Shown: positions 7,577 to 29,966, counted from the first letter of the stretch. The stretch is DNA of 64,000 nucleotides from Candidatus Omnitrophota bacterium (GCA_016177405.1 JACOVG010000004.1:18674-82673), one strand, 5' to 3'. Translations and numbers: made by a program. The notes: generated by a model from the letters alone, not told the origin.

Positions 7577-7823
7577 GACAAACCTCCTGAATGACGGCAT
7601 CCACATACGCATCCCCCTTTTGCCTCCAGACCAGATGCGGCCCGCGGTAGAAGGGGTTCCTGAACATGGCGCGCAGCTTCTCCCGCGGCCAGCCGGAGCG
7701 CAGGAATTCCTCCGCGAAGGTGACGGCCATCTCCTTGAGGGAGGCCTCGTCCGGCGCCGGGAGCACGATGCCGGTCAGCTCCATCGGGTCGTCCGGCTCC
7801 GGTTCCTTCAGCGGGATGGCCAT
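7560..7823 (-). CDS. small hypothetical protein (87 aa) between alpha and beta subunit genes
   Basis: Its ATG overlaps the nxrA stop as TGATG with GGAGG 4 nt upstream, and its 3' end overlaps the nxrB start by 17 nt. It is acidic, has no TM segment and no recognised motif. Codon usage resembles its neighbours. Confidence 0.45.
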   Translation of the reverse strand: MAIPLKEPEPDDPMELTGIVLPAPDEASLKEMAVTFAEEFLRSGWPREKLRAMFRNPFYRGPHLVWRQKGDAYVDAVIQEVCHAQGL

Positions 7824-10800: not shown

Positions 10801-11263
10801 GGGCGGGGGTCAGCTCCGGGAAGCCATCGTCGGCCCACTGCCTCCAGCCCTTGCGGACGATGGGATGCTTCAACCGGTAGGGCCCGTACATCAGGCGGTG
10901 GAAGGTGAAGCCCTTGGCGCACTGGCGCGGGTTCCAGTTGGGGGTGGCGTGGTTGCCGTAAAGGTCGGCGTAGCTGGCGTAATCGTACTGGGAGCCCAGC
11001 CGCACCACGATGCCGTTGCGGACGTAGGCCAGAACCCGGCAGGCGTGCGTGTCGTTGGGCGAGCAGACCCATGAGAAGGTGCTGTCATACCGGTACTGAT
11101 CGCGGTAAAGCTTCTCCCAATCCCGCGAGGGGTAATGGGCCAGGGGATTCTCCACGTCGGCCACCGGCTCCAGGGCCCAGAGCTTGAGCTCCCGGGACGC
11201 CAGATAGGCGGCGGCTCCGGTCGCGCCGGCGAGCTTGATGAATTGACGGCGGGTAAGGATCAT
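7823..11263 (-). CDS. nxrA: molybdopterin oxidoreductase alpha subunit, NxrA/NarG-like (periplasmic, Tat-exported)
   Basis: 1146 aa from the ATG at 11263. It has a Tat leader (MILTRRQFIKLAGATGAAAYLASR) and an N-terminal Fe-S Cys/His cluster region (WVCSPNDTHACRV). MGD-binding domains extend throughout, and the length and blocks match periplasmic-type NXR alpha subunits. The upstream part of the 1172-aa track ORF is untranslated low-complexity sequence. Confidence 0.85.
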   Translation of the reverse strand: MILTRRQFIKLAGATGAAAYLASRELKLWALEPVADVENPLAHYPSRDWEKLYRDQYRYDSTFSWVCSPNDTHACRVLAYVRNGIVVRLGSQYDYASYADLYGNHATPNWNPRQCAKGFTFHRLMYGPYRLKHPIVRKGWRQWADDGFPELTPAHKAKYKFDSRGLDSFEKISWDEVNGYVARALAAIAKRYSGEEGKKLLRSQGYPEEMIEAMRGAGTRTLKFRGGMGLLGVFGKYGMYRLANTMALLDVHLRGVKPEDSLAGRAWSNYTWHGDQAPGHPWVHGLQNADCDFNDLRFSKLIIQDGKNLCENKMTDSHWFIECMERGGRVVTISPEYSPPASKSDDWIPIRPQTDAALFLGITRILIDNGWYDREFVTGYTDFPLLIRTDNLKRLRAHEIFPGYRGQLSKEGASFKIQGLTEPQYQKLGDFVVWDEAANAPAAVTRDEVGRRLAQRGVKPSLEGTFQVKTTQGQTVEVMTLFTLYKIHLKDYDLDSVAEITQAPKEKIEKLAKEMATLKPVAIHQGEGINHYFHATEANRAAYLPLMLTGNIGKPGAGCYSWAGNYKAALFQGSPWTGPGFKGWVAEDPFHPTLDPSVDGKEIHAHAHFMDEEPAYWNHGDKPLIVETPQAGRKVFTGKSHMPTPTKAMLFTNVNLLNNAKWAYEMLKNVNPNVEMILSVDIQMTATIEYSDIALPANSWLESEGLEVTASCSNPFLQIWKGGIPPIFDSRDDLMILAGIAEALAKTTGDARILDYWRFALEGKREVYIQRLLDACTTTRGYKLSDIMAGRYGPPGGALMLFRTYPRVVFWEQIHEDLPFYTDCGRLAAYSDVPEAIEYGENFIVHREGTEATPYLPNVIVSSNPYVRPSDYGIPLTAEHWDDRTVRNVKKPWGEVKQSKNFLWEKGFKFYCLTPKSRHRVHSLWSNVDWHEIWDSNFGDPYRMDKRAPGVGEHQIHINPEAAKDLGLNDGDYVYVDANPADRPYLGAKPSDPFYKVARLMLRARYNPAYPYNVVMMKHGTYIATERSVRAHETRRDGRALSADTGYQANFRYGSQQSVTRNWHMPMHQTDTLFHKAKVFMSFLFGGEADNHAVNTVPKETLVRVVKAEDGGLGGQGIWQPAATGYTPSNENETMRRYFEGKFLEV

Positions 11264-11267
11264 CTCT

Positions 11268-12653
11268 TCAGGGCTCCAGTTGAAGCTCGTTCCAGATCGA
11301 GACGTTCTTCTGCCCGTTGCGGTCCTGGTGGGCGCCGTCAAAGATGGCGAAGGCCGCCGAGGCCGTCGCGCCGGGCGCCAGGGGAAGATCCTCCTGGTTC
11401 CGGGAAATGGGCCTTAAGAAAACCAGCCGCCAGCGCCCATCCTGCCAAAGGCCGCGGGCCTGAACCTGCTGGAGCCGGGCCTCCCGCGAGGTGAGGGTGC
11501 CCGGACCCTTGGCGTTGGCCTCCTCGGCGGCCTGGGGCGTTTCCGGCAAGGCCTTCCAGTTCCAGATCCAGACAGGCGCCTGCCGATCTCCCATGCCGAA
11601 GAAGGGGGGGTCGGCTGCCGCCGACAGCTGGATCGCCGCTCCATCCGAAAAGGACTGCGGCGTCAGGGTGGAGTTGTCCCGGGCGGCGTCGCTCCACGTC
11701 AGGTGAAAGGCGAGCGCCTCGCCGTTGTGCAGGCAGCGCACCTCCACCGATTCGATCCGGTCGTCCCTCCACCACAAAGGGGTCAGGTTCACCGCCGCCG
11801 GCTTGATCCTCTTCCACGCGGGCGCCATCGGATCCAGGGGGATCTCCCCCTTCAGGCGGGAGGCCCGGATCGTCCGCCGCGCCAGGCGCGCCCTCTCCTC
11901 CGCCCCCGGCGGCGCCAGCGACTGCACGAAATGGACCAGATCCCAAACCTGCTCGTCCGTGTAGGCGCCGGCGTAACTGGGCATGGGAGAGCCGGGAAGG
12001 CCCGCGATGATCCGGCGGTAAAGATCGGCGCTTTGGGAAGACCCCTTGAAGATGCCGGCGGTGAGGTTGCGCGGGCGGATGGGGAAGCCCTGATTGTCCT
12101 GCATCACCTGCTGGCCGTCCCCTTTGCCTTGCAGGCCGTGGCAGGAGGCGCATCCCTGGGAAAAGAGGGCTCGGCCGCGGCCGGCGCTCTTGGCGTTCGA
12201 CGGGGTTTCCCGCGGCACGGGCACGATGGAGGCCGGGTCGGAGGGGGCCGGGGAGCCGGTGAGCTTGCGCACGTACCCCACGAGGGCCCAGCGCTCTTTC
12301 TCGGTCAGGGCCTCCCAGGAAGGCATCGCCGAACCGGGCATGCCGCGCGTGATGGCGAGGAACAAATCCTCGTCGGCCGCCTCCATGGTGCTGGTCGAGA
12401 CCAACCGAAATTCGTTTCGGGTGAAATCGCGCGGCTTGGGGTACAGAAGATAGGCCGCCGGGCCGTCCCCGGCGCCGGTCAACCCGTGGCAGAGGGCGCA
12501 CTGTTTCTCGTAGAGCTGTTGGCCTTCGGCTAAAAGCCCCGGCGCAGCTGCCGGCCGATCCTCTCCGGCCGCCGGCAGGGCCGCCGCGAGAATCATTCCA
12601 AGGAGCCCTAGGGTGAGTACCTTAGGAAGACTTGGTGGTGTCGCCGACATCAT
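11268..12653 (-). CDS. di-heme cytochrome c fused to an NxrC/EbdC-like gamma-subunit domain
   Basis: Signal peptide, then two CxxCH motifs (CALCHG, CASCHG) in the N-terminal 250 aa. The C-terminal 200 aa resemble heme-b gamma subunits of type II DMSO reductases (EB_dh-like, WxW, HNG region). The gene ends 4 nt before the nxrA start. Confidence 0.68.
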   Translation of the reverse strand: MMSATPPSLPKVLTLGLLGMILAAALPAAGEDRPAAAPGLLAEGQQLYEKQCALCHGLTGAGDGPAAYLLYPKPRDFTRNEFRLVSTSTMEAADEDLFLAITRGMPGSAMPSWEALTEKERWALVGYVRKLTGSPAPSDPASIVPVPRETPSNAKSAGRGRALFSQGCASCHGLQGKGDGQQVMQDNQGFPIRPRNLTAGIFKGSSQSADLYRRIIAGLPGSPMPSYAGAYTDEQVWDLVHFVQSLAPPGAEERARLARRTIRASRLKGEIPLDPMAPAWKRIKPAAVNLTPLWWRDDRIESVEVRCLHNGEALAFHLTWSDAARDNSTLTPQSFSDGAAIQLSAAADPPFFGMGDRQAPVWIWNWKALPETPQAAEEANAKGPGTLTSREARLQQVQARGLWQDGRWRLVFLRPISRNQEDLPLAPGATASAAFAIFDGAHQDRNGQKNVSIWNELQLEP

Positions 12654-12936: not shown

Positions 12937-13425
12937 ATGCTGCGCCTCCACTCCAAGGGCTGTGAATATGCCATCCGGGCGCTGATCCACCTGGTTCGGC
13001 GACAATCATCCCGGAAGCTGCCGGTTTCCTTTGGGAAGCTCTGCCATAAAACCAAGACGCCGGAACCCTCCACCCGGAAGGTGTTCCAGCGAATGGTGCG
13101 AAAGGGTCTGCTGACCGCCGTGCCGGGACGGGGGGGCGGCTACCGGCTGGGCCTGCCGCCGGATAAGATCAGCGTCTTGAGCATCATTCAAACCGTGGAC
13201 GGTCCCAAGGCATTGGGCGGCTGCGTTCTGGGCCTGCCTGCCTGCGGCGGCCGCCGCCCCTGCCCCCTGCACCCGACCTGGAAGAAGACCAAACAAGAAC
13301 TGACGCGGGAGTTAAGATCTCACACGCTTCTGGATTTGGCCAAAAGGAACGGAAGAGGAAGTTCTAAAGGCGGTATTCGGTGCGGACCATGGACGGATGC
13401 TGGAAGAGCCCCAGGCCCAAGGTGA
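12937..13425 (+). CDS. Rrf2 family transcriptional regulator with 3-Cys Fe-S ligand motif (NsrR/IscR-like)
   Basis: N-terminal wHTH (MLRLHSKGCEYAIRALIHLV). The Cys triad CVLGLPACGGRRPCPLH has the C-x6-C-x5-C spacing of cluster-binding Rrf2 proteins. The functional C-terminus is probably near residue 145; the ORF tail overlaps the convergent gene. Confidence 0.78.
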   Translation: MLRLHSKGCEYAIRALIHLVRRQSSRKLPVSFGKLCHKTKTPEPSTRKVFQRMVRKGLLTAVPGRGGGYRLGLPPDKISVLSIIQTVDGPKALGGCVLGLPACGGRRPCPLHPTWKKTKQELTRELRSHTLLDLAKRNGRGSSKGGIRCGPWTDAGRAPGPR

Positions 13426-14974
13426 GCGTGGTCCAGGCCGCCATCGGCACGGCCAGCCACCCCCTCACCCTCTGCGGCATCGGAATCGGGCCGAATTCCC
13501 GCCGGATGGCCGAAAGGAGCTCCCGGGCCCTCTGCCTGGCAACCCGCGTGGGGCCCATCCAGACCGCCGGGCCCAGGGCCGGAAAGCTCTCCAGGATGTC
13601 CCTCCGGTAGCGCTCGGCCACCTCCCTAAGCCGCGCGTTGGAGCTGTCCTTCAGCCGGTGGTAGCCGAGGCGCCACGTTTCGATGGCCCGGACAATGGAG
13701 GGGCCCAGGCGATGGAAGTCCTGGCGGAAGCAGTCCCGCTGGATCGCCTGGACCTGGGGCGCCGTCATCGTGGGGTGATCCACCACATTGTAGAATCCGG
13801 TGCAGCGGCGGAAGAAGGCATCCCGGTCCTTCACGAATTTTTTGCGCAGGCGCCCCTGGGCGGTGATCCTCTCGTAAAAGGGGGTGCCCGGAACCGGCCC
13901 GTAGATGAGGAACTGCGCCAGGGTGGGCTCGAGGGCGAGCAGCTGGTCCAGCTCCTCTTGGATGATCTGGGGCGTCTGGTAGTCGAACCCCACGATCATC
14001 GACGCCAGCACGATGATCCCGTGGGCGCGCAGATCGGCGATCAGCTCGTCGATGGGCCGGCCCTGCTGTTTGGCGAAGTTGGAGCGCCTTCCCTCGTAGC
14101 CCATCCAGACCCCGGAGATCCCCATCTCCAGAAGCTCGGTGAGCGAATATTGGGAGAGGGCCTTGACGCTCGAGAAGACGAACATCGGATAGTCCGCCTT
14201 CGCCTGCCGCACGCAGTCCAGAAACTCCGTCGAGCGCCGCTTGTTGAGGAGGAAATCCTCGTCCAGGACGGTGAATTTGATGGAGGGCTTCCGAGCCCGG
14301 TAGTCCCGCAGGACCTTGAAGATGTCCCTTCCCTCGGGCAGCAGCCGGACGTGCTTGCGCTTGAAGAAGTGGGAGGTGCAGCAGAAATCACAGCCGTTGG
14401 GGCAGCCCAGCCCCGCGAAGATCATTCCGTTGTCGCCGATCGAGGTTGAAAAAACCTTCAGCCCATTGACGATCAGGGGGTGGTCGTAGGGCATGGCCTT
14501 CTCCGGCTCCCCCATCAGCCGGCGCAGGAAGCCCACCCCCTCCTCCCGGCAGATGTAATCCCCGTAGGGCGCAAGCTCCTCGTCCGGAAGGATCGTCCCA
14601 TAGCCGCCCAGGATGATCTTGGATTGCGGCGAGTGCTTCCGGATCAGCTCCACCACCCGCTTCATCCGGTGAAAGACCGCCAGCAAAAAGGAGACGCCCA
14701 CGTGGGAATAGCCGCGCTTAAGCTCCCGGATCAGCTCCCGCTCGGTGGGGTACTGGAGGACGACGGTGGGTATCTCCAGGTTGTGCGCGATGTACTCGAG
14801 GGAGAAATGGACCTGGTACGAGCGGGGGCTGAAACAGCCCTGCGCCCGGGTGATCTGCTCGTGCGCGAGCTCGTAGCCGACCGAGATGCCGTCGCCGTAG
14901 CGCCGGCCCAGGGGCCGGCAGACGCTGGTCAGCAGAAGCCGCCGGGGTAGAACTCCGTTGGGATGGGAAATCAT
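13364..14974 (-). CDS. B12-binding radical SAM protein (class B rSAM), paralog 1
   Basis: An N-terminal cobalamin-binding Rossmann region (KIILGGYGTI) precedes a radical SAM CPNGCDFC motif. It is about 536 aa, and about 35% of residues look shared with the second copy at 28135-29880. Confidence 0.8.
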   Translation of the reverse strand: MISHPNGVLPRRLLLTSVCRPLGRRYGDGISVGYELAHEQITRAQGCFSPRSYQVHFSLEYIAHNLEIPTVVLQYPTERELIRELKRGYSHVGVSFLLAVFHRMKRVVELIRKHSPQSKIILGGYGTILPDEELAPYGDYICREEGVGFLRRLMGEPEKAMPYDHPLIVNGLKVFSTSIGDNGMIFAGLGCPNGCDFCCTSHFFKRKHVRLLPEGRDIFKVLRDYRARKPSIKFTVLDEDFLLNKRRSTEFLDCVRQAKADYPMFVFSSVKALSQYSLTELLEMGISGVWMGYEGRRSNFAKQQGRPIDELIADLRAHGIIVLASMIVGFDYQTPQIIQEELDQLLALEPTLAQFLIYGPVPGTPFYERITAQGRLRKKFVKDRDAFFRRCTGFYNVVDHPTMTAPQVQAIQRDCFRQDFHRLGPSIVRAIETWRLGYHRLKDSSNARLREVAERYRRDILESFPALGPAVWMGPTRVARQRARELLSAIRREFGPIPMPQRVRGWLAVPMAAWTTLTLGLGLFQHPSMVRTEYRL

Positions 14975-15050: not shown

Positions 15051-17153
15051 CTAAAAGGTCTGGCCGAGGAAGAGGTAGGCCGAGTCTTGGTCGTCCTCGG
15101 TGAAGCCGTAGGCCAGGTAGAGGGGGCCCAGGAAGGTGTCGAGCCCCAGGAAGGTGCTGCCGGCCCAGCGGAGAGAGTTCAGGTGGATCTGGCTTCGGTC
15201 GTTCCAGGTGTTGCCGGCCTCCAGGGAGCCGCCCAGATAGAGCGGTATCTCATAGGACGACACCCTGGGTTTGAAAAACTGGCGATAGTAGACGAGCCTT
15301 CCCAGCCCCACGTGCTGTCCGGAAAGCTGGCCCTGGTCCAGGCCCGAAAGAGACAAGAAGCCTCCCAGCGAGAAGCGGTCCTCGACCTGGGAGGCCTTAT
15401 TCAGCACCGAGCCGATTCTCGCGCTTAAGAGGAAGGTGTTGGGGCCGAAGCTCATCGCTTGAAACCACTGGGTGTTCAGGACGTCGTAGCTCGACTCGGC
15501 CCCCAGCTCTTCCCGGACCAGCCGGAATTCCACCTCTCCGGCCGTTCCGGAGCGGGGGAAGTGGGGGTTGTCGATCGTGTCCACGCTGAAGCGGGCGAGG
15601 TATCCCCCTTCCTCAAACCCGCCGCCCCCCAGCGTCCCGGAGGTGAACCGGGGCCGGAGGTCCCCATCCCCATGGCGGGCCCCCACGCGCAGTTCGCCCC
15701 AATTCTCAAGCTGGCGCCCCAGGTCCAAACCGGCGGTCGTGGCGGTGTCCCGAAACTCACTCACCCTGTTCCCTTGGCGAAAGACCTCGACATTCGCCTG
15801 GCCGTGCTCGGCCGAGGCCGAGGCGAAAAAGCGGCCCCCCGCGTCCAACGGCTGGTAAAACTCGGAGGAGATCCGCGGCTCATCCCCGATGGCCATCTCG
15901 TTGCGCCACTCGGCCCCCAGGCGGTTCACGAGGGTGGTGGTCTCGCGCGCGGCCAGGGCGTAGCTGGTGCCGCCGCTGAAATCATCCGCGAGGTTGAGCC
16001 CGAACCGGATGTAATGGGGGCCCCACGATTTTTCCTCGGCCTTGAAAACGAGCCCGTGGGTTCCGCCGGTTTTCTCCAGGTCAAACTCCACCTGCTCGAA
16101 GTAATCCAGGCCGTTCACCCGGGCGAGGTCTTCCTTTAGGGTCGAGACCTCCAGGGGCCTGCCCACGGGGGTTCGGATCTTGGAGCGGATCACGGCGGGG
16201 TCCAGGCGCGAGGGATTCACGATTCGGATCGAACCGATCACCGGCAGGGTATCGGGCCCGCCCCGTTTTACCGCCAGGTGCGACCGGTAATTCCCTTCGT
16301 TCAGGGAGAGGCGGGAGACCTCTTCCGACGAGCGCCGCGCCGCCGCCTCACCGCGGCGGACCGCTTCCACCGCGCGGTGGTAATCGCCGGGCATGATCCC
16401 CGCGAGCTCGGGGCGGATCACGACGTCGCCCGATTTCAGGGCGGCCATCTGAAGCTTGGTGTTCTGCACCGCCAGGATGTCCAGGGCCTGCTGGGAGATC
16501 TCGATGGCCGAGCGAAGCTCCTGCCGTTTCCGAAGGGGGGTGGGCAAGTCCACCACGATCAGGATCTCCGCCCCCATCGCCCGGGCGACATCCACCGGCG
16601 TGTTGTTGGCGATCCCTCCGTCCACCAGGAGGCGGCCGTCGAGCTCCACCGGCGGAAAAACCCCCGGGATGGACATGCTGGCCAGGATCGCGGCGGCCAG
16701 ATCGCCCCGGCCCAGGACCACCGTCTCGCCGGTTTCGATGTCGGCGGCCACCGCGCGGAAGGGGGTGGCCAGCTCGTCAAAATCCCTCACCTCGGCCCTG
16801 GAAACGGTCAGGGTCCTAAGCATGGCCCGGAGCTTCCTTCCCTGAATCAGCCCCTTGGGCAAAACCAAGCGGCCCTCCTTGATCCCGAGGGCGAAGCGGA
16901 TCAGGAAGTTGGCGTCGTCCTGCTTGCGCCGGTAAGGGAGATCCCGCCTGGGAGGACGGTCCTCAAAGAGATCCACCCAGTCGGCCTGGGTGAGCTGGGT
17001 TTCAATCTCCCGAGGGGAAAGGCCGGCGGCGTACAGGCCCCCCACCACCGCGCCCATGCTGGTGCCGGCGATGCAGTCGATCGGAACGCGAAGCTCCTCC
17101 AGCACCTTGAGCACCCCCACGTGGGCTGCCCCTTTGGCGCCGCCGCCGGCCAA
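15051..17153 (-). CDS. PlpD-like type Vd autotransporter: patatin-like phospholipase + POTRA + Omp85-type beta-barrel
   Basis: Patatin Gly-rich loop GGGAKGAAHVG, lipase serine GTSMG and DGG catalytic Asp motif. A C-terminal barrel ends in an aromatic residue (LGQTF). The track start at 17153 is a TTG. The same frame remains open upstream and encodes a signal peptide (FFRRVLFVLALSLLFSFLGAVPPEPARA) after a strong AAAGGAGG, but with no ATG/GTG/TTG. The true start is probably near 17279. Confidence 0.72.
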   Translation of the reverse strand: MAGGGAKGAAHVGVLKVLEELRVPIDCIAGTSMGAVVGGLYAAGLSPREIETQLTQADWVDLFEDRPPRRDLPYRRKQDDANFLIRFALGIKEGRLVLPKGLIQGRKLRAMLRTLTVSRAEVRDFDELATPFRAVAADIETGETVVLGRGDLAAAILASMSIPGVFPPVELDGRLLVDGGIANNTPVDVARAMGAEILIVVDLPTPLRKRQELRSAIEISQQALDILAVQNTKLQMAALKSGDVVIRPELAGIMPGDYHRAVEAVRRGEAAARRSSEEVSRLSLNEGNYRSHLAVKRGGPDTLPVIGSIRIVNPSRLDPAVIRSKIRTPVGRPLEVSTLKEDLARVNGLDYFEQVEFDLEKTGGTHGLVFKAEEKSWGPHYIRFGLNLADDFSGGTSYALAARETTTLVNRLGAEWRNEMAIGDEPRISSEFYQPLDAGGRFFASASAEHGQANVEVFRQGNRVSEFRDTATTAGLDLGRQLENWGELRVGARHGDGDLRPRFTSGTLGGGGFEEGGYLARFSVDTIDNPHFPRSGTAGEVEFRLVREELGAESSYDVLNTQWFQAMSFGPNTFLLSARIGSVLNKASQVEDRFSLGGFLSLSGLDQGQLSGQHVGLGRLVYYRQFFKPRVSSYEIPLYLGGSLEAGNTWNDRSQIHLNSLRWAGSTFLGLDTFLGPLYLAYGFTEDDQDSAYLFLGQTF

Positions 17154-17954: not shown

Positions 17955-18851
17955 ATGGAACTTCAACCGCTTCGCTACGCCGTCCTCCTGGCCCAGGAGC
18001 TCCACTTCGGGAAGGCGGCCCAGCGGGCCAACGTCACCCAGCCGACCCTAAGCCAGGGGATCAAGAAGCTGGAGGGGGAGCTGGGGGCGGTTCTCTTTGA
18101 GCGCGCGAGGCGGGGGGTGCGTCTGACCGCCTCCGGCAAGCGTTTCCTTCCCAAGATCGTTCCCGTGCTGGACCGGCTTGCCGGCGCCGTGGACAGCCTC
18201 AAAGGGGAAGCCCGGGAGGCCTCCGGGCCCATCCGAGTGGGAGTCATTCCGACCCTCTGTCCCTATCTCATGCCGGGGGTGGTGATGGAGCTTAAGAAAT
18301 CGGCGCCCAAGATCTCTCTCGCCATCCACGAAGAGACCACCTCCGTCTTGGTCGATCACCTCAAGTCAGGCCAGCTGGACCTCGGGGTTCTGGCCCTGCC
18401 GATCGTCGAGCGGGGAGTTTCAACTCTTTCCATCTGCAAGGAGACGTTTTACCTGGCCGTTCCCAGGAGGCATCGTCTGGCTGGGAAAAAGCGCGTCACC
18501 CCGGAGGAGGTCGCGAGGGAGAGGGTCTTGATCCTGCAGGAGGGGCACTGCTTCAGAAGGCAGTCCCTGGCCTACTGCAAGCTGTCGGCCAGGGACCCCA
18601 GGGTCATCTTCCAGGGAAGCTCGTTGAGCTCGGTCCTGAATCTTACGGCCGCCGGCGAGGGGGTCACCTTCGCGCCCCGGATGGCGGCCGACCATCGCCT
18701 GTACCCTGGGATTCGATTCGTCCGCTTTGCCGACCCCGAGCCCGCGCGCGAGCTGGGGATCATCTGGCGCTCGACCTCCGCCTGGAGCCGCGCCCACGAG
18801 GCCGTGACCGACGCGGTGAAGAAGGTTTTAAGGGAAAGGGCGGCCGGCTAG
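17955..18851 (+). CDS. oxyR: LysR-family transcriptional regulator, OxyR-like
   Basis: N-terminal LysR HTH (LRYAVLLAQELHFGKAAQRANVTQPTLSQGIKKLE). A Cys pair EGHCFRRQSLAYC is spaced like the OxyR redox Cys199/Cys208. The gene is divergent from a peroxiredoxin gene. Confidence 0.75.
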   Translation: MELQPLRYAVLLAQELHFGKAAQRANVTQPTLSQGIKKLEGELGAVLFERARRGVRLTASGKRFLPKIVPVLDRLAGAVDSLKGEAREASGPIRVGVIPTLCPYLMPGVVMELKKSAPKISLAIHEETTSVLVDHLKSGQLDLGVLALPIVERGVSTLSICKETFYLAVPRRHRLAGKKRVTPEEVARERVLILQEGHCFRRQSLAYCKLSARDPRVIFQGSSLSSVLNLTAAGEGVTFAPRMAADHRLYPGIRFVRFADPEPARELGIIWRSTSAWSRAHEAVTDAVKKVLRERAAG

Positions 18852-20500
18852 GGCTTCTTGCGTTTCGCGAGAAAGAGAAGAAGAGCGGCGCCGGCCGCGA
18901 GAAGCCAAAGCCAGCCGAGGCCCCGGCCGGGCTCGGCCTTCCGGGCCGCCTTGACAAATTCCTCCTTGAGCGCCGCGGTCTCGCTCGTCAGGACGAGCTT
19001 GCCGCTGTTGGCCTGGGCGATCAGCTGAAGCTGTTTGCGGGTCGCCGGGTCGTTCTCCACCCCCAGGCCAATCAGCGTGAAGTCAATCCCCTCCATGGAA
19101 ACCTTGAAGTCCATCTTGGCAAGCAACAGCCCAACCCATTCGAAGCCGGTGTGCCCCTCGCCGAACTGCTGAACCTTGGTAAAGTAGGTGCCGGCGTCCA
19201 GCGAGATGTAGGAGGTCTGTTCCCATCTGTAAATGCTCTCGACCGGCTTGCCCTGCGCGTCAAGGAATTCCAGCGTGTAGGCGCCGGATGACGGCCCGGC
19301 GGGCGCCATGACAAATCGGCTAATGACCAAACTCGGCTCTTTGAGCTCGAACCGGAAGAAGTCGACATCCTCCTCCGGGATGAGTTGGAATTTCACCACG
19401 CTGTTCAACTCAATGGCCCTGGCCGTTTCCAGGGTGTCGTTCGGCTCGCTTGAGTCGGTCTCCGGCATGAGGGAGAGCGAGGCGTAGAGGGGCTTCACCG
19501 ATTCCTCGCCAAGCGCCTCGTAGCGGCTTTTGAGCCGAAGAAGGCCCGAGCCCTTGGGCACCCTTTGGACCCATCGGCCGGAGGTCAGGACCTTGCCCTC
19601 CTCGTCCAGCCACTCCGGGGTGAGGGCCAGATCCATCCCTGGGTGCGGCGAGACGGTGAGCCAGGCGTAGCCGGCCTCCGGGGCCTCGAACCGGAAGAGA
19701 TCCCGATCTCCTGCCGGCAGGATCCAGAAAGGAACCAGCTCGTCCCAGTCAACCTTCCGGGCGGCGGCGGGGGTGTCGTTGGGTTCCGAGGGATCCAGCT
19801 CCTCCATAAGGGAGAACTCCAGCGACACCGGCTGGCCGGACCAGCCGCTGAACTTGGAAAAGAGCTTGGCGTAATGGGCGCCGGCTGGAAGTTTTTCCGT
19901 GAGGGTTTCTCCCTCCGCGCTTTCCGGTTTTCCCGACGCGTTAAGGAGCTGGACCTTGGCGTAGAGATTGCTTGCGGGGCTCTTCAGCTTCACGCGCAAA
20001 TAGCCGGGTTTCTCAAGCTCAAAACGAAAAAGATCTTCGTCCCCCGGCGGGAGAAGCCAGGAGGTTATCGGCTCGCCGAGTTTGACCGGGCGGGCCTGGG
20101 AAATTTGGCCGTTCGGTTCGGAGGGATCCTCCTCCGGCACAAACTCTATCCAAAAGGTGAACGGCTTGTCCGAGGCGGCATTGAAGCGATCCAGCACCTT
20201 GACCTGATACCGGCCGGGCTGGGCCCGGAAAACCGGATTCTTTTGGATGTACTGAAGCTTGCTTTCCCCCTGCCAGAAGGCCGCCTCCGGATAAAGCGAG
20301 GTGGGAACCTTGTCAAAGCGGACCACGAGGTAGCCGGTCCGCTCCACCTCAACCGTCACCTCTTCCTGCTTGCCCTTCTGGTTGAGCAGGATCTCCCTTT
20401 TTTCCCCAAAGGCCGCCTGCGGCGGCTCGGCGATGGGCTGGGCGGAAGGCAAGGCCATCCAGGCCCAGGCCGCCAGCGCAAGCCACCTCATTGTTCTCAT
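18848..20500 (-). CDS. secreted protein with four tandem PPC (pre-peptidase C-terminal) domains and a C-terminal TM/basic anchor
   Basis: Signal peptide (MRWLALAAWAWMALPSA). Four repeats begin EPNG/EPND..A and end D.DLFRFE, the PPC signature. The C-terminus reads GLGWLWLLAAGAALLLFLAKRKKP. The ATG at 20500 overlaps the upstream stop as ATGA. Confidence 0.7.
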   Translation of the reverse strand: MRTMRWLALAAWAWMALPSAQPIAEPPQAAFGEKREILLNQKGKQEEVTVEVERTGYLVVRFDKVPTSLYPEAAFWQGESKLQYIQKNPVFRAQPGRYQVKVLDRFNAASDKPFTFWIEFVPEEDPSEPNGQISQARPVKLGEPITSWLLPPGDEDLFRFELEKPGYLRVKLKSPASNLYAKVQLLNASGKPESAEGETLTEKLPAGAHYAKLFSKFSGWSGQPVSLEFSLMEELDPSEPNDTPAAARKVDWDELVPFWILPAGDRDLFRFEAPEAGYAWLTVSPHPGMDLALTPEWLDEEGKVLTSGRWVQRVPKGSGLLRLKSRYEALGEESVKPLYASLSLMPETDSSEPNDTLETARAIELNSVVKFQLIPEEDVDFFRFELKEPSLVISRFVMAPAGPSSGAYTLEFLDAQGKPVESIYRWEQTSYISLDAGTYFTKVQQFGEGHTGFEWVGLLLAKMDFKVSMEGIDFTLIGLGVENDPATRKQLQLIAQANSGKLVLTSETAALKEEFVKAARKAEPGRGLGWLWLLAAGAALLLFLAKRKKP

Positions 20501-23205
20501 CGGGACTCCGTCATGAGGTTGCCCAGATCGGTCAAGGCGTCGCCTCTTCTCTTTCGCAGGGAACGCCTCCACGGGTCGGCCCGGCGCTTCAAGGCCAGGG
20601 CGGCCGCCGGATCGTCCCGGCTGCTGGCGCTTAATCTCTTCTCGGCAACCGGCTTGGCATCCAGGATCCAGCCGTACTCCTTGCCGGCGGGGTTCGGCAC
20701 CGCCTGCCAGCGCCGCTCGATGAGAACCACCTCGGCATCGCCCCCGCCCAAGGGTTTTTCCATGTAGCGGTTTTCCACGAGATCCCTTCCCTCCACCCGG
20801 TAGCCCCGCCAGAGGCCGGGGTCGGCCAAGAAGCGCTCTCCGCCGGCAGGGGCTGGGCCGCCGGGACCGGCAAAGGAAACCGGATCGAAAGAAGGGGGAG
20901 GAACCTTGCCCGCCTCGGAGCTGGAGATGTAGGTGAGCCCCGGATAATCGGCCAGGGACGCCGTCCCGCCGCCGCAGGTCTCGGCCCCGTCGCTTAGGCA
21001 GATCAGGGAGCGGTTTCGGCTGCCGGCGTGGGCAGCAAGATAGCGGCTGGCCTCTCCCAGGGCCTCCACAAGGGGTGTCCCCTGGGCCGCGGAAAGGCCG
21101 GAGATCGCAGACAGGGCAGCGCTCTTATCCTTGGTGAAGCCGACGGCAGGCACGGTGATGGAACCGCAGTCGGTGAAGTATCCGACCGCCACCTCGGCAT
21201 CCCTGGAGCCCGCCAGCGCCTTCACCGCGGCCGCGGCCGCGGCCTTGGCCTTCTCGAGCTTGCCCTCCTCCCCCATGCTGCCGGAGGAATCGATCAGGAT
21301 GAAGGTGGAGGAGCTGGCGGTTTCGCGGCCGGCAGGCGGCGGGGCCGGGAGAGGTTTGGGGGGCGCGGGCGGCTCGGGTTCTTCCTCCTTCTTCTCCTTC
21401 TTGACCTGGATGCGGTGACTCTGGTCGGCTCCGCCGCCGGGCGGCTCGTACCCGTCCCAGCTTAAACTCTCCTTGTTGAGCTTGGGGACCGTCTGCGGGT
21501 TGGAATCGAGCCCCAGCCGGTCCGGGGAAACCGCCGTCACGCTCACCGGCAGGGTAAAGACCTCCCCGGCCATCGAGTCGTCAACGGCGACGCGGTCCAC
21601 CCGGCCGATCACCTGCCTGCGTTCGTCGGTCGGCTCATTCAGGCGGGCCGCGGCCCCCCCCACCTGAAGCTGGGCCGCGCCGTCAATCTCCCTGGAGAAG
21701 ACCAGTCGAACCTGCAGAGGGCCGAACCCCGTTTCGTCCTTGCCAAGCTCGATGGTATTGGAGTCGAGGACCGAAAGGTTTCTCGCGCCGGCCCCGTCGT
21801 CCCACCGGGCATGGTAAAGGGTTCCTCCCCCATCCAGCCGGTCGATCTGAATCTCCCGCAAAAAAGGCGGCTCGGAGACGGCCGCGGCCACGGCAAGCTC
21901 GGTCACGTCGGTGTCCGGATTCGCCGCCACCAGGAGGACCCTGTTCGTCCGGTCGGTGTAGAAGCCGTATTGCTCGACGGTGTGCTCGGCGGCGAGCTCG
22001 CCGGCGGCGAAACGGATCTCATCCACGCCGACGACGTCCCTCATCGCGGCCCCGGTGAAGCTGATTACCCGGGCCGACAAGCTGTCCCGGGGAGTTTTCC
22101 TGCGCAGGACAAGGTGCAGGCGGGTCGAGGTGGCCTGGCCGCCCGGGGGGACAAACTCCACGTAGGCGGCCGAATAGGGCTCCAGGTTAAAGGAGGCGCT
22201 CCGAATGCTGTTGGCGCTCCATTCCTTGAAGTACCAGTCGCGGGTCCGCTCGCGGGGCGCCACCTCCTGCGCGATCTCACCGCCCCGCCGGAAGCTCCAA
22301 GGGGCCCGGCTCTTCAGGGCCACGGCCACGGAAAAGTTGGTGAAGTAGCGGTCGAAATCGGCCGTCTCCAGCACGCCCCGCAGGATCTGCATGCTCAACT
22401 TGCCGGCGTTGCCCGGCACCTCATCCCAGATCTCCCGGATTACCCCGGCTCCGTTCGGGTGGTGCTCGCTTAGATATTTAAAGTAGATCGCCCCGCCATA
22501 GGGCATGAGGCGAACCGCGGCGTCGCTGGGGTCGTACCGCTTGAGACTCGTGCCGTCGGACCAAAGGGGATACCAGGCGGGCATGTGCCTTAGGAAGGAG
22601 CCGATCTCCGGGGCGGCCGGCAGGCGCTCATCCTCGGACCAGGCCGCCGTGGCCTCCCACATCCACCGCAGGTCCGAGCTGTAGCGGGGGTCGTAAAAGT
22701 GCTGGAGGAAATGGAAAAACTCGTGGGTGCACATGCTTCTCACGAAATCGATGTTCCCGGGCTGGGCCAGGTCGTACCAGCGGATGTCGAAATAGGGGTT
22801 GACGTTCTTGACGGAGAGCCGGTAGAAGCCGGCGGCCCACTCCTCGCCCGGGCCCATCGAGGTTCTTAGATAAACCGCCACCCGGCTGTTGTCGGCCCAG
22901 GCGGGATGCCGCCACCCCTGCCCGTGGAAGAAATCCCAGGCCTCCTCCAGGGTGTCGCCCACCAGGATGGCGTAGGCGTTGGGGATGGTGTCCCTGTCGT
23001 AATAGAGGACGAAGTTCCGGGTCAGCCGCACCAGGTTGTAGACGCGGCCGTCCGGGCCCGTGAAGTTGATGACGGCTTGCTTGGCGGGCTCCTCTTGGGC
23101 GGCGAGGGGGACGGGAAAGAGCGACCCTGCCCAGAGGAGAAAAAGGGCCGCTGTGAAAAAGCGCCTACTCGGTCTTGTCGGGCTTGGCCTCAAGGCCTGT
23201 CTCAA
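20497..23205 (-). CDS. secreted HExxH zinc metalloprotease-like protein with C-terminal von Willebrand factor A domain
   Basis: Signal peptide, HEFFHFLQH zinc-binding motif, a Pro-rich linker (EPEPPAPPKPLPAPPPAG), and a vWA MIDAS motif (ILIDSSGSMG). About 900 aa. Confidence 0.68.
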   Translation of the reverse strand: MRQALRPSPTRPSRRFFTAALFLLWAGSLFPVPLAAQEEPAKQAVINFTGPDGRVYNLVRLTRNFVLYYDRDTIPNAYAILVGDTLEEAWDFFHGQGWRHPAWADNSRVAVYLRTSMGPGEEWAAGFYRLSVKNVNPYFDIRWYDLAQPGNIDFVRSMCTHEFFHFLQHFYDPRYSSDLRWMWEATAAWSEDERLPAAPEIGSFLRHMPAWYPLWSDGTSLKRYDPSDAAVRLMPYGGAIYFKYLSEHHPNGAGVIREIWDEVPGNAGKLSMQILRGVLETADFDRYFTNFSVAVALKSRAPWSFRRGGEIAQEVAPRERTRDWYFKEWSANSIRSASFNLEPYSAAYVEFVPPGGQATSTRLHLVLRRKTPRDSLSARVISFTGAAMRDVVGVDEIRFAAGELAAEHTVEQYGFYTDRTNRVLLVAANPDTDVTELAVAAAVSEPPFLREIQIDRLDGGGTLYHARWDDGAGARNLSVLDSNTIELGKDETGFGPLQVRLVFSREIDGAAQLQVGGAAARLNEPTDERRQVIGRVDRVAVDDSMAGEVFTLPVSVTAVSPDRLGLDSNPQTVPKLNKESLSWDGYEPPGGGADQSHRIQVKKEKKEEEPEPPAPPKPLPAPPPAGRETASSSTFILIDSSGSMGEEGKLEKAKAAAAAAVKALAGSRDAEVAVGYFTDCGSITVPAVGFTKDKSAALSAISGLSAAQGTPLVEALGEASRYLAAHAGSRNRSLICLSDGAETCGGGTASLADYPGLTYISSSEAGKVPPPSFDPVSFAGPGGPAPAGGERFLADPGLWRGYRVEGRDLVENRYMEKPLGGGDAEVVLIERRWQAVPNPAGKEYGWILDAKPVAEKRLSASSRDDPAAALALKRRADPWRRSLRKRRGDALTDLGNLMTESR

Positions 23206-24070
23206 CGCTCACCTCACGCAGCCCCACGTTCTTCAAGGAGATCTCCGTGAAGAAATCCACCCTGCCGTACTCTTCCTTGACCAGCCGCAGGTCCTCGGGC
23301 TTGACCTCCCCCTTGGGAACCGGCGCGAAAAGCTCCTGGGTGATGGAGGTGGCGTGCTTGAGCTTGGAGAGAACCTCTTCTCCCTCGGAGAGGACCACCG
23401 ACTTCTTGCCGGCAAAGGCCACCTCGATGCCGTCTTGACCGGTTTGCTCGGCGAGGGTCAAGCTCCCAGAGGGGATCAGGCGGATGCTGAAGGTCTTGGC
23501 CACCGAATCGTTCAGCCCCAGCTCCAGGCTCTCGGGCCGCTGGCTGTAGACCGGCAGCGCGAGCTGGGCAGGATACTGGCTGAAAACGTAGTAGTTGGCG
23601 AGACTCCCCTCCCGGCCCTTCCCCTCGTAGCGGATGGCGTGAATGAGAAAGAGCTTGGCCTCCTTGGCCAGATCCATGCCGGGCTTGTCCAGGAAGAGGC
23701 GAAACTCCTTCTCCTGGGTCCCGGCGGCGATCGAAGCGGCGACCTCTTCGGGCACCAGGATCCGGCTGCCGGCCATGCGAAAGGCGGGAGGCTGGGCCGG
23801 GGAATCGGAGATGAAGAGAAGCTCCTCGAAGCCGTCCCGGTTGACCTCGTTGAGCTCCAGGTAGAAGACCTTGTGGGCCTCCTCGGCAGGCGGGGCGGGT
23901 TCCTGGCTTACCGGCTCGGGAGGAGCCGGCTCCGCCACAGTCTGCGGCGGGGGCTCTTCTCGCGCGGCAGGCGGAGCCGATGGCCCGCGGGCGAGAAGCC
24001 AGCACCCGCCGAGGGCCGCCACCGCCACCGCTATCGCGATCTTCCAGCGAGACATGTGCACTAACCCCAT
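23165..24070 (-). CDS. hypothetical lipoprotein
   Basis: Signal peptide with lipobox (VAALGGC) and a Pro/Glu-rich linker. No recognised catalytic motif. Confidence 0.55.
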   Translation of the reverse strand: MGLVHMSRWKIAIAVAVAALGGCWLLARGPSAPPAAREEPPPQTVAEPAPPEPVSQEPAPPAEEAHKVFYLELNEVNRDGFEELLFISDSPAQPPAFRMAGSRILVPEEVAASIAAGTQEKEFRLFLDKPGMDLAKEAKLFLIHAIRYEGKGREGSLANYYVFSQYPAQLALPVYSQRPESLELGLNDSVAKTFSIRLIPSGSLTLAEQTGQDGIEVAFAGKKSVVLSEGEEVLSKLKHATSITQELFAPVPKGEVKPEDLRLVKEEYGRVDFFTEISLKNVGLREVSVETGLEAKPDKTE

Positions 24071-24109
24071 TCTATCAGATTTGCTCCGCGCGCCAAAGAA
24101 TCCAGGGGG

Positions 24110-24907
24110 TCAGAAGCTCCAGGTGAGGCCCGCGGTCGCGCGGAGATCCGGGCTCGCGTCGGTGAATCCGATCCCGATGCCGGCGTCCAGCGCCAGATGG
24201 GGCGAGAGATTGCAGATGAAGCCCGCGAGTCCCTCCAAAAGATCGTCGGAGGCCGCGGGATCGGAGTTGGTCTGGCCGATCAGCTCGGCCTCAAGGACCC
24301 ATCGCCGGTTGAGGGCATACTCGCCGGCCAGGCTGTAAGAGATGCTGTTGTCCTTGTCCGCCCCTTTGGGCTCTCCTGTCCAGGTGTAGCCGAGGTTCCC
24401 ATGGAGCGTGGCCTTTCCAAGCCTTTTGGAGCCGGAGAGGTAGAGACTGTAATCCCGCTCGCCGGTCCCCAGTCCCTTATCCTCGTTGCCGGAGGCGCTC
24501 TTCACCGACGCCGCCAGCGACAGGGCCGGATGGAGGGGGCCCTCCGGAAGAAATCCCCACTCCGGATAGAGAATAATGTCGCCGGGGCCGTCAACGTCCT
24601 GCTCGACAACCGGGTCCAGGAAGGTGTAGGGGGTCTCGACGCTTAACTCGAAACCCATCGGCAGTCCCACCCCGATGTCCAGGTTGAGGCTGGCCTGGCG
24701 GTCGCCGGTGTCCTGCTTGGTGTAGACCGCCCCGGCCGCCAGCGCGAAGGTTCCTTCCTCTAAGGTGTAGCCGTCCTCGGTGGAAAGGGGGCGGTTGGCG
24801 ACAAAGGCCTGGGCGGGATCCGGCAGGATCGCCGAAAGAAGGGCCGCGGCAGCCAGGAGGCGTTTCTTGAGGGGACAACTCATCGGCAGTTGATATAATA
24901 CCTTCAA
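24110..24907 (-). CDS. outer-membrane beta-barrel protein (MetA-pathway/transporter-like OMP family)
   Basis: Signal peptide, alternating amphipathic beta-strand pattern, and a C-terminal aromatic residue (LTWSF). Confidence 0.62.
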   Translation of the reverse strand: MKVLYQLPMSCPLKKRLLAAAALLSAILPDPAQAFVANRPLSTEDGYTLEEGTFALAAGAVYTKQDTGDRQASLNLDIGVGLPMGFELSVETPYTFLDPVVEQDVDGPGDIILYPEWGFLPEGPLHPALSLAASVKSASGNEDKGLGTGERDYSLYLSGSKRLGKATLHGNLGYTWTGEPKGADKDNSISYSLAGEYALNRRWVLEAELIGQTNSDPAASDDLLEGLAGFICNLSPHLALDAGIGIGFTDASPDLRATAGLTWSF

Positions 24908-28134: not shown

Positions 28135-29880
28135 TCACACCCAGCCGATGCGGGCGGCCTCCGGCGGCTTTTCCGGGAAGAGGGCAAGCATCGGATCGTT
28201 CATCTCGTAAAAGGAGGGGGGCTCGCAGGTCCACCCCTCTTTCAGGCGCTGGTCCTCCTGGCGCAGCTTGGCCAGGACGAATCGCCCGGCCAGGGGGGCG
28301 GCCAGCTTGGCCTTCCAGCCGATCTCCCGCTGGATCTCGTTCAAAAGAGCCGTGAGCTTCCGACAGAGCTCCGGCCGGCTCTTCCGGTACCAGCTCGCGG
28401 CCGCCCAGAGCATCGCGGGAAAGGTCACCTTCAGCTCTCTCGCCTCCCAGGCGAACCGGGCGCGGATTCTTTTGTCCGGATGGTTCTTGTACTTCCGCCG
28501 ACCTTTGAGGAGGGTGCGCGCGATCCGCAGGATGCTCGGGCCGTTGGTCTGAAAATCGCGCTCAAAGGCCTCGATGAGAAATTGGGTCTCCTCCCCCTTT
28601 TGAAGGTGGGGGTGCTTGTAATTGAACGTAAACTGCCCGTGGATGTCCGCGTCGTCGTACTCGCCCGGTTTGAGCAGCGCCCCCTTGGCCAGAAGCTCCG
28701 CGTGAAGGGGGGTGCCCGGGATGGGGGTGTAGAGCATGAACTGATGGAAATCGGTCTCGTGGCTTATGGAGTACTCGATGGCCTCCCGGAGGTTTTCCGA
28801 GGTGTGCTCCTCCAGCCCGATGATGCTCGAGCCCAGGACGCGGATGCCGTTGGCCTGGAGCTTCTGAATGAGGGAAAGGGTGTCTACCCCCTTCAGCTTC
28901 ACGTACTGGCTGCTCTTGCCCTCCAGCCCCATCCACACCCACGAAATCCCCAGCCCCACCAACTGCTCGATGGTGTAGGACTGCAGAACCCTCGCCGAGC
29001 TGAAGACGTACAGGGACCAGGATTTGCCGTGCTCCTCCATCAGCGCCAAGAGCCGCAGGGCCCGCTGGCGGTGCAGGAGGAAGTTCTCATCCATGACAAA
29101 GAAGGAGCGCACCTCCATCTGGGTTTCAAGCCCCTCCATGATGCGGAACAGCTCGTCTCCCGTTTCGTAAAAGTTGACGAATTTGCCCTTGCCCCCGAAC
29201 ATCGCGGAGGTCGCGCAGAAGTTGCACCCCATGGGACAGCCGACGGACGGGATCAGCGTGGCGGCCACCTCGCCCTTCTTCTTTCTCACCTCCAGGCCCA
29301 TCGCCCGGGTCTTGACCGCGGAAAGGATCAGGGCGTGCCGGATGGGCCGGTCCACCTGCTCTCCCAAGAAGCGGCGGAACCAACGGACCCCCTCTCCCCG
29401 GATGATGTGGTCCGCGTCTATCCGTTTTTCCAGCCCCGGGGCGTTGGCGATGTGCCCCCCCACAACGATCGCCGCCTGGGGCAGATGCTCCCGGATGAGG
29501 CGGCACATCTTCTGAACCTTGCCGATGTTGGGCATGATCGCGCTGATCCCCACGACGTCGTAGGGATGCTCGCGGATCTCCTGGATGAAACGGTCCAGCG
29601 TTGGGAAGTCCAGCAGGGCGCAGGGGGCGTTGACGTTGGCCTGGATCATCATCAGCCCCCAGGAGCGGTGAAACATCCGCAGGGAAAACGGCCCCTGCGT
29701 GCGCGTGACCTGGTTGTGGTAAAGCTCCATCGGGTTGATGGAGCGGCTGCCGTACTCGTCGTCCCGCGCGTAAGGCCCGAAGACGCTGGAAAGCAGGACC
29801 CTGGCCCTCCCTCCCAGGGGATGGACCGCCTCTTCCTCTTTTTTTTCCGCTTCCGCTATCGTGCCGACGCCGTCATTCAT
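28135..29880 (-). CDS. B12-binding radical SAM protein (class B rSAM), paralog 2
   Basis: Cobalamin-binding N-domain (AIVVGGHIA) and CPMGCNFC radical SAM motif. Blocks are shared with the paralog at 13364-14974 (for example [28 protein letters not shown] versus SSVKALSQYSLTELLEMGISGVWMGYEG). The ATG at 29880 has GGAGAG upstream; the track start is a TTG. Confidence 0.8.
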
Positions 29881-29966
29881 GCCGCTCTCCAAGTGGACCT
29901 TAAAAAGAGCGCAGGCCCAAGAGCGCTCCTGGGCCTGCGCCAAACAACCGGTAAGGGTTTACGACC

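Follow-up and report, generated by a model that had tools for sequence, protein, structure and literature searches.

Two adjacent exported proteins of a Candidatus Omnitrophota bacterium appear to carry complementary parts of one vWA domain

Introduction

Do the four tightly packed genes at positions 18848-24907 of a 64,000-nucleotide (nt) stretch of DNA from a Candidatus Omnitrophota bacterium (GCA_016177405.1, JACOVG010000004.1:18674-82673; this whole stretch is hereafter called the window) form one dedicated system, and if a function is divided among them, what exactly is divided? The original prediction, made from the sequence, described an outer-membrane protein, a lipoprotein, a protein with an HExxH motif and a von Willebrand factor A (vWA) domain, and a stand-alone protein of four PPC domains, and took them for a split protease or adhesin with its own envelope components. 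The four genes, called A to D here in their 5' to 3' order, are:

24110-24907, minus strand: gene A, outer-membrane beta-barrel, 265 residues from TTG or 257 residues from the ATG at 24883
23165-24070, minus strand: gene B, N-terminally membrane-anchored protein and candidate lipoprotein, 301 residues
20497-23205, minus strand: gene C, HExxH/poly-Pro/vWA fusion protein, 902 residues
18848-20500, minus strand: gene D, PPC-like repeats, vWA C-terminal part and transmembrane helix, 550 residues

The reading preferred here, with a probability of about 0.55, is that a vWA fold is completed between the chains of C and D and thereby tethers the gluzincin-type head of C to the membrane-anchored PPC stalk of D. 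The earlier proposal of a split system was thus right in that C and D belong together and something is divided between them, but the divided item would be the vWA domain and not a protease parted from its PPC tail.

Few modules for adhesion and metal-dependent binding have been studied as thoroughly as the vWA and integrin I domains, which are treated as autonomous folds of a single chain. The component parts of the locus are all of known kinds, i.e., a gluzincin-like HExxH domain, a vWA domain, the PPC/collagen-binding fold and a MetA-type barrel. A conserved split vWA domain is apparently undescribed so far: a literature search, which did not cover subscription journals and is therefore not proof, turned up no account of a vWA domain that is split, truncated or incomplete and nothing relevant on the combination of PPC, vWA and metalloprotease, and a survey of the Omnitrophota (PMC10066038) does not mention vWA or PPC.

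Results and discussion

The incomplete vWA domain of C and its counterpart in D

The open reading frame (ORF) calls confirmed the coordinates of the four minus-strand genes and the earlier statement that they overlap or nearly touch. A and B were 39 nt apart, B and C overlapped by up to 41 nt, and the stop codon of C (TGA) overlapped the start of D as ATGA, with GGAG a few bases 5' of the D start codon. Protein C is 100% identical to a protein of a Candidatus Omnitrophica metagenome-assembled genome, encoded on an 82.8-kb contig and annotated at NCBI as 'VWA domain-containing protein'. Its signal peptide and HExxH domain are followed by middle domains of the beta-sandwich type, a poly-Pro linker (residues 602-628) and the N-terminal two-thirds of a vWA domain, to which an accessory tail is attached. 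Protein D, annotated as 'hypothetical protein HYS41_00905', consists of a signal peptide, four PPC-like beta-sandwiches, a segment called Dc here, a transmembrane helix and a KRKKP tail. The segments in question are:

20935-21312, minus strand: vWA N-terminal part of C, residues 632-757, beta1 to alpha4 (partial PF00092 match; aligns with the unsplit vWA domain of P0113)
20500-20934, minus strand: accessory tail of C, residues 758-902, predicted beta-meander and helix (low-confidence AlphaFold2)
18926-19096, minus strand: Dc segment of D, residues 469-525, beta-alpha-beta-alpha (AlphaFold2; profile and chimera tests)

That both proteins are exported was supported by their signal peptides, and the description of C as an HExxH, vWA and poly-Pro protein was borne out by the HEFFH motif, the linker and the Pfam scan, in which VWA_2 (PF13519) matched at 2.7e-10 with 41.3 bits (cutoff 27). 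VWA (PF00092) matched with 26.9 bits (cutoff 23.8), but only over profile positions 4-117 of 174. The metal ion-dependent adhesion site (MIDAS) is complete within this N-terminal part (DSSGS at 639-643, the Thr of GTPL and the Asp of SDG), and its residues were invariant across the N-terminal parts compared, six in one alignment and all nine pairs in a later one. The chain of C, however, does not hold a complete six-stranded vWA fold, since beta5-alpha5-beta6-alpha6 are missing. The tail of about 160 further residues, which was predicted with low confidence not to be a beta-alpha-beta unit, was present in the window and in the related loci L004, L005, L006 and L007 and absent from L008, L010, L016 and L018. 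In the latter four loci the partner protein ended 24, 3, 33 and 27 residues, respectively, after the 'DG' of beta4 (...VLVILTDGEDT in L010). These natural C-termini correspond to PF00092 profile positions of about 115-133, and such partners therefore cannot hold beta5 or beta6.

Every D-like protein carries, between the last PPC-like domain and the transmembrane helix, the conserved Dc segment of about 55 residues, which in the window is GIDFTLIGLGVENDPATRKQLQLIAQANSGKLVLTSETAALKEEF. In the AlphaFold2 model of D, it was composed of a strand (475-479), a helix (485-497), a second strand (501-505) and a second helix (508-521), with the transmembrane helix coming next at 529-547. The uniform hydrophobicity of the first strand, DFTLIGL, would suit a buried central strand. 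When the Dc profile alone was searched against all of the PDB (E <= 10), it returned a single chain, the 'VWFA domain-containing protein' 9e5c_4s (E 7.4e-4), and the joined profile of N-terminal part and Dc aligned end to end with solved vWA domains, namely 4fx5_A (residues 81-255, 1.7e-10), 8s05_A, 5a8j_A and the integrin alpha-M I domain. Joining the two parts into chimeras extended the Pfam VWA coverage from about 4-114 to 4-162 or 4-164 of 174 positions, with gains of 4.4 bits for the window and 4.1 bits for L004; the L008 chimera reached 3-168 of 174 (+6.8 bits), and in the L010 chimera the VWA_CoxE match lengthened. Moreover, P0113, a PPC-repeat protein with an unsplit vWA domain (residues 90-272), belongs to the same subfamily and has the SDGxETCGG motif in common. 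One BLASTP high-scoring segment pair crossed the C/D junction of the chimera against this protein (query 2-180 against 90-272, 32% identity, E 2e-13), hhalign gave 97% probability over positions 3-162, and all nine pairs of vWA N-terminal part and Dc were colinear with the P0113 domain in alignment. A comparison of Dc with P0034 by hhalign was too weak for use. At the level of sequence, these comparisons establish Dc as homologous to the C-terminal part of the vWA domain, i.e., as the predicted counterpart of the missing beta5-alpha5-beta6-alpha6, and they place the split point between alpha4 and beta5.

Pairing of the two parts in related loci

The synteny comparison covered 19 related loci, in which the vWA N-terminal part and Dc were sought by a six-frame scan with hidden Markov models. 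Exactly one of each was found per locus, always adjoining and with the vWA N-terminal part first, in nine of nine distinct loci, which span the Omnitrophota and more distant metagenomic lineages with identities down to about 25-30%. D-like proteins occurred only with a truncated-vWA partner (again in all nine loci), this partner usually had no HExxH domain, and the D-like protein had its own signal peptide in each of the nine. The junctions comprised five 4-nt overlaps, one 1-nt overlap and three gaps of 35-62 nt. The 4-nt overlaps in five of the nine loci suggest translational coupling, which would favour equimolar synthesis of the two proteins.

The partners differed in what precedes the vWA part. 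In L004 and L005 the gene ahead of the full-length D homologue encodes a secreted vWA protein that stands alone (307 and 316 residues, respectively) and is homologous to residues 627-886 of C. The fused form of C was found again in L006, followed by a D protein with three repeats, in a contig that begins inside C. The distant D-like proteins P0016, P0018, P0019, P0023 and P0024 were each directly preceded by a secreted protein of about 680-900 residues with a coiled-coil N-terminus, motifs of the C middle domain and a terminal vWA match (the four complete ones had 747-901 residues; that of L016, with 676 residues, is cut by the contig end). The shared region belongs to the following feature of C:

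21394-22203, minus strand: middle beta-sandwich domains of C, residues ~335-604 (AlphaFold2, pLDDT ~80-89)

Residues of about 440-600 of C were common to the coiled-coil-headed partners, and the motifs PPxL..vY.A.W and LD..P.T...W..YEP...H recurred in L007_901, L008_809, L010_747, L016_676 and L018_828. B, C and D were seen together only in the window, the upstream genes of L006 lying beyond its contig. Scans of the genome contigs with a D alignment and of the metagenome contigs with an HExxH alignment returned only the known loci and two irrelevant PPC matches, and a homologue search with residues 600-902 of C gave one irrelevant match, probably because low-complexity poly-Pro words swamped the candidates.

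The pairs of L004 and L005 were also similar in their surroundings. They were flanked upstream by a 167-residue multi-pass membrane protein (L004 3769-4272; L005 752-1255) and downstream by a convergent 487-residue secreted protein (L004 6883-8346, minus strand; L005 3892-5358, minus strand). The flanking proteins had no Pfam match and no homologue in the window.

It could be asked whether the split is an artefact, i.e., a frameshift, an assembly error or a pseudogene of a single vWA-PPC gene, and P0113 indeed indicates that a vWA domain and PPC repeats can stand in one chain. However, the two-gene form recurred in nine independent loci at the low identities given above and with differing junctions, the D-like protein had a signal peptide in all of them, and the order of vWA N-terminal part, PPC array and Dc is unlike a simple break of the P0113 order. 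The frameshift was rejected on the recurrence of the same two-gene form, and an artefact of any kind is considered extremely improbable.

Several observations weigh against a vWA fold shared between C and D. The complementation between chains is argued from homology and synteny. The L016 and L018 chimeras left the Pfam VWA match unextended, and the gains elsewhere were modest (4-7 bits). Dc-like modules also directly followed the signal peptide in PPC proteins with neither a visible vWA N-terminal part in the same chain nor a membrane helix (P0174, P0167, P0125, P0096, P0131, P0142, P0164, P0079 and P0162), and an extra Dc-like copy stands ahead of the complete vWA domain of P0113; such orphan modules mean that Dc may exist autonomously. 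As to the head, its protease activity is a prediction, its family match lies under the cutoff and no solved relative was found. Finally, the AlphaFold2 model of full-length C was poor, with a predicted local distance difference test (pLDDT) score of 56.5 and values below 40 in the vWA region; it is uninformative either way, the probable reason being that homologue rows with another C-terminal domain were misaligned to the vWA part. A Foldseek search of this model against the PDB gave generic beta-sandwich matches only.

The orphan Dc-like modules, the extra copy in P0113 and the two unimproved chimeras would also agree with a different explanation, in which C and D are linked in function without a shared fold, the truncated vWA domain being self-sufficient or degenerate and Dc being an autonomous alpha/beta module for dimerisation or a juxtamembrane role. 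Similarly, VWA_2 has 107 positions, all of which were matched by the N-terminal part. This explanation would nevertheless leave beta4 (LICLSDG or LIVLTDG) as an exposed edge strand although it is fully hydrophobic, and one partner stops three residues after it. It would also have to account for the homology and colinearity of Dc, through the junction, with the unsplit vWA domain of the same subfamily and for the one-to-one pairing in nine of nine loci, and an isolated two-stranded beta-alpha-beta-alpha unit would not correspond to a known stable fold. Two proteins without a common fold are therefore regarded as unlikely, and a vWA domain formed by both chains is preferred.

The PPC-like stalk and membrane anchor of D

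Two further features of D bear on the proposed stalk:

19112-20413, minus strand: four PPC-like beta-sandwiches of D, residues ~30-122, 140-233, 250-346 and 360-463 (AlphaFold2, Foldseek)
18851-18922, minus strand: C-terminal transmembrane helix and basic tail of D, residues 527-550 (sequence; AlphaFold2 helix 529-547; conserved in all D-like proteins)

Four beta-sandwich domains were present in the AlphaFold2 model of D (pLDDT 75.9), and the best specific match in Foldseek was 5iku, the tandem collagen-binding domains of ColG (E 1.1e-9, 18% identity). An EPNG/EPND-type motif opens repeats 2-4 and is absent from repeat 1, and the D homologues P0013 and P0014 carry PF04151 in precomputed annotation. 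The assignment to PPC is based on the motif in three repeats, the annotation of these two homologues and the 5iku match. PF04151 itself remained below its gathering score on D (E 0.0014, 19.9 bits, cutoff 25.9), and the single repeats gave no PPC match against Pfam, though they had been cut inside the EPND motif. The count of four domains in the original prediction was thus supported by the four sandwiches, while their membership in the Pfam family did not reach the cutoff. D is separate from any peptidase and is not a C-terminal peptidase tail. This arrangement, which had been thought unusual, turned out to be common, as 5443 cluster representatives, many of them thousands of residues long, matched the D profile at E <= 1e-3; the position as a peptidase tail is consequently not a strict criterion of the PPC family.

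No NCBIfam match to a sorting signal of the sortase, exosortase or rhombosortase type was found in D at E <= 0.1. Ahead of the transmembrane helix of the D-like proteins only a Trp was conserved, and no motif. A sorting signal of the PEP-CTERM type was considered and rejected, as neither its motif nor a model match was present. The tail would rather act as a stop-transfer anchor, which predicts anchoring in the inner membrane and not display at the surface. The succession of Dc, transmembrane helix and basic tail recurred in at least 13 further clusters at 50% identity within the 150 best representatives, one of them from a metagenome-assembled genome of the Phycisphaeraceae.

The HExxH head and the origin of C

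The head of C corresponds to:

22153-22986, minus strand: HExxH domain of C, residues 74-351 (NCBIfam NF045524 match; HEFFH-x18-E at 22654-22725)

The HEFFH motif occupies residues 161-165, and Glu184 lies exactly 18 residues past the second His. In the alignment, HEFFH-x18-E together with D192/E193 was invariant in eight of eight homologues. A spacing of this kind between HExxH and Glu, with the Glu about 18-25 residues downstream, is that of the gluzincins of clan MA(E). The motif of C agrees with it, and the zinc site looks catalytically competent. Since the third ligand is Glu, the site is of the gluzincin type and no Met-turn is expected; the absence of a third zinc ligand, which the original prediction had named as an argument against a protease, was not what was found. 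A metzincin was rejected, as the motif region HEFFHFLQHFYD has no Gly or His at the positions of HExxHxxGxxH. The His at +4 after the motif varied among the homologues, with Ser in P0005 and Gln in P0008.

NCBIfam NF045524 (MXAN_6640_HExxH) matched C at 1.4e-22, with 80.8 bits for the whole protein and 81.9 bits for the excised domain, both under the cutoff of 140, and was matched by all eight HExxH homologues (best 1e-27). By these scores the domain is a divergent sister group of the MXAN_6640 family and not a member by the curated threshold. The profile of the domain gave no PDB match and no meaningful Pfam match, and no paper mentioning the MXAN_6640 family turned up in the literature search. 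Only eight homologues of C were found among 5.8 billion clusters.

The HExxH homologues of L001, L002, L003, L014 and L015 had 705-779 residues and no vWA domain, their shared middle domain being followed by a Cys-containing domain of about 110 residues. No D-like gene or Dc element was found beside them in the six-frame scan. They are located at L001 8287-10626, at L002 933-3128 and 3125-5317 (tandem paralogues), at L003 2974-5217, in L014, and at L015 1267-3465. Their terminal domain has two invariant Cys in the pattern LNGLWR...RC..GW...SED..L.GRF..IDE.C and had no database match. In two of these loci a conserved multi-pass membrane protein of about 320 residues stood 3' of the HExxH gene (L002 5333-6292; L015 3465-4436); it is absent from the window.

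The possible origin of C can be read from the arrangement of these loci. A pair of B and HExxH genes was present in six of six loci and had no vWA domain elsewhere, whereas the pair of vWA N-terminal part and D was present in nine of nine, with a stand-alone vWA part in L004 and L005. On this synteny, C is identified as a fusion of an HExxH protein (module 1) with a truncated-vWA protein (module 2).

Genes B and A

In B, an N-terminal hydrophobic segment with LGGC (the Cys being residue 23) is joined by a Pro-rich linker to a conserved domain, which has about 230 residues. It had no relative in Pfam or NCBIfam, and its profile gave only noise against the PDB. It may be a lipoprotein in the window, where a lipobox is present as in L001 and L015, but the Cys was missing in two of the five B homologues (L002 and L003), whose N-terminus is a plain membrane helix. 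What the family conserves is therefore an N-terminal membrane anchor, not necessarily with lipidation. The alignment around B residues of about 30-65 suggests that lipidation and a signal anchor alternate in this family. A B homologue (41-56% identity) was located directly 5' of the HExxH homologue, often overlapping it, in L001, L002, L003, L014 and L015, which with the window makes six of six loci. Among the related loci B occurred only with the HExxH module and not with the vWA/PPC pair. It may thus be an accessory specific to the HExxH head, with anchor, chaperone or inhibitor as candidate roles.

A was confirmed as a beta-barrel by a full-length match above the cutoff to Phenol_MetA_deg (PF13557; 6.5e-16, 59.5 bits, cutoff 22, profile positions 1-242 of 242), and its C-terminus reads ...TWSF. 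Weak consensus scans indicated a promoter-like -35/-10 site at 24923-24895 and a terminator-like hairpin after the upstream helicase gene. The position of the promoter-like site suggests that A begins at the ATG at 24883, and the product of 257 residues is the likely one. No homologue of A was found in the 19 related loci, including those with several kilobases upstream (L001, L003, L015, L004, L005, L007 and L008), and no relative was found in the PDB. L010 encodes, just upstream of its distant split-vWA pair, a protein of TPR and beta-barrel (1282-2598) with a weak SlipAM (Slam-like) match, together with an alpha/beta hydrolase. A relationship of A with this barrel was rejected, since BLASTP between them was empty.

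The results for A and B bear on whether all four genes could be one dedicated system, in which A and B would export or display a split protease or adhesin made of C and D at the surface. The packing on one strand is tight, with the promoter-like site before A and the terminator-like site after the helicase gene; A belongs to a genuine family of outer-membrane barrels, and in L010 a different, weakly Slam-like barrel lies two genes upstream of the pair. However, A has no homologue in the related loci and shows no relationship with the L010 barrel, B goes with the HExxH domain instead of the vWA/PPC pair, and the helix and basic tail of D would predict the inner membrane and not the surface. The four genes were accordingly not conserved together, as had been expected of them: B with HExxH was found in six of six loci and the vWA N-terminal part with D in nine of nine, but A in none of the 19. 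No evidence was obtained that A or B is a dedicated component of the envelope or of secretion. A surface system of all four proteins is hence judged quite improbable, and A is probably a mere neighbouring barrel of the porin type, possibly co-transcribed and not conserved with the module.

Proposed assembly and comparison with known systems

If C and D form one vWA domain, the following assembly can be proposed. C and D would each be exported through their own signal peptide by the Sec pathway, and the stop-transfer helix of D would keep this protein in the inner membrane, its basic tail lying on the cytoplasmic side. The vWA N-terminal part of C, being unable to bury the hydrophobic beta4 without beta5 and beta6, would then fold onto Dc, resulting in one vWA domain made of two chains beside the membrane. 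The assembled domain would link the variable head to the PPC stalk non-covalently and make the MIDAS functional for ligand binding. A substrate or target might be bound by the PPC array together with the MIDAS and be cleaved by the HExxH head. As the head is exchangeable, being either HExxH or coiled coil, the pair of vWA part and Dc would be an attachment device and not a part of catalysis. More tentatively, and with slightly less than even odds, the arrangement could be generalised as plug and socket, the PPC stalk with Dc being the socket and the middle domain with vWA beta1-alpha4 being the plug with swappable heads, zinc-protease-like in this lineage of the Omnitrophota and formed by long coiled coils in others. 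The MIDAS site would then exist only in the complex, and the orphan Dc modules could be sockets for partners encoded elsewhere.

The canonical vWA and integrin I domains (PF00092, PF13519) have the same MIDAS pattern, DxSxS...T...D, and the same order of secondary structures in a single chain. In contrast, the fold here would be divided after alpha4 between two exported chains, with a PPC array before the C-terminal part and a membrane helix after it. The metagenomic unsplit proteins of the P0113 type have a vWA domain of the same subfamily and likewise carry PPC repeats; their vWA domain, however, is complete and N-terminal to the repeats, there is no C-terminal membrane helix, and an orphan Dc copy is located at the N-terminus. 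With the uncharacterised MXAN_6640 family of putative metalloproteases (NF045524) the HExxH match is shared, while the head in the window is divergent and has its own partner B.

The clostridial collagenases ColG and ColH (M9 gluzincins) similarly combine a gluzincin head with tandem binding domains of the PPC fold. ColG, however, is one secreted chain, whereas in the window the head belongs to one protein and the PPC array to another, which is predicted to be membrane-anchored, and a vWA domain comes between them. The ColG catalytic domain and the head of C had no detected relation in sequence. In the self-cleaving metalloproteases of the CLCA type, which are secreted, an HExxH domain is followed by a vWA domain. 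The order of zincin head and vWA with MIDAS is alike, as a matter of architecture only, and the CLCA1 vWA domain (6pyo_A) was among the PDB matches of the chimera profile, but the CLCA zincin belongs to a different family, its vWA domain is complete and it has no PPC partner. In the donor-strand complementation of chaperone-usher pili, an incomplete beta-sheet domain is completed by a strand of another chain. This is an analogy in principle, i.e., a non-covalent link by completion of a fold; there the fold is Ig-like and one strand is donated, while here it would be a Rossmann-like vWA fold receiving two strands and two helices.

If the proposed assembly is true, building a vWA domain from two chains would be a principle of assembly new to this fold and would account for a sizeable set of 'hypothetical' PPC-repeat proteins ending in a membrane helix, such as the at least 13 further clusters among the best 150 matches mentioned above. 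On the plug-and-socket reading, two-component complexes of the surface or periplasm would make up a so far unrecognised family in the Omnitrophota and at least one lineage of the Planctomycetota (Phycisphaeraceae). The pair could also supply a natural split domain for protein engineering. In the Omnitrophota, an uncultured group whose members are often supposed to attach themselves to other cells, C and D would be a candidate membrane-tethered complex in which a protease-like head is combined with a MIDAS site and a stalk for binding. For annotation, it follows that an adjoining 'VWA domain-containing protein' and 'hypothetical protein' can be halves of one domain.

Surrounding genes

The G+C content was about 64% throughout the window, without a shift in composition at the four-gene locus. 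The surrounding genes were ordinary chromosomal ones, encoding LysR, AhpC, a patatin-like lipase, B12 radical-SAM enzymes, a DEAD-box helicase, TypA, a molybdopterin oxidoreductase, GltX and XseA. The gene of the LysR-type regulator (17955-18851, plus strand) is convergent with D, and the two stop codons overlap by 4 nt (18848-18851). The region is flanked by two B12-binding radical-SAM proteins of 536 and 602 residues (13364-14974 and 28135-29943, both on the minus strand). A 700-residue protein at 15051-17153 (minus strand) carries a patatin-like phospholipase domain at its N-terminus (2.4e-36), whereas some 500 of its residues have no annotation, and the 1172-residue molybdopterin oxidoreductase (7823-11341, minus strand) adjoins a 4Fe-4S dicluster protein (6338-7612, minus strand).

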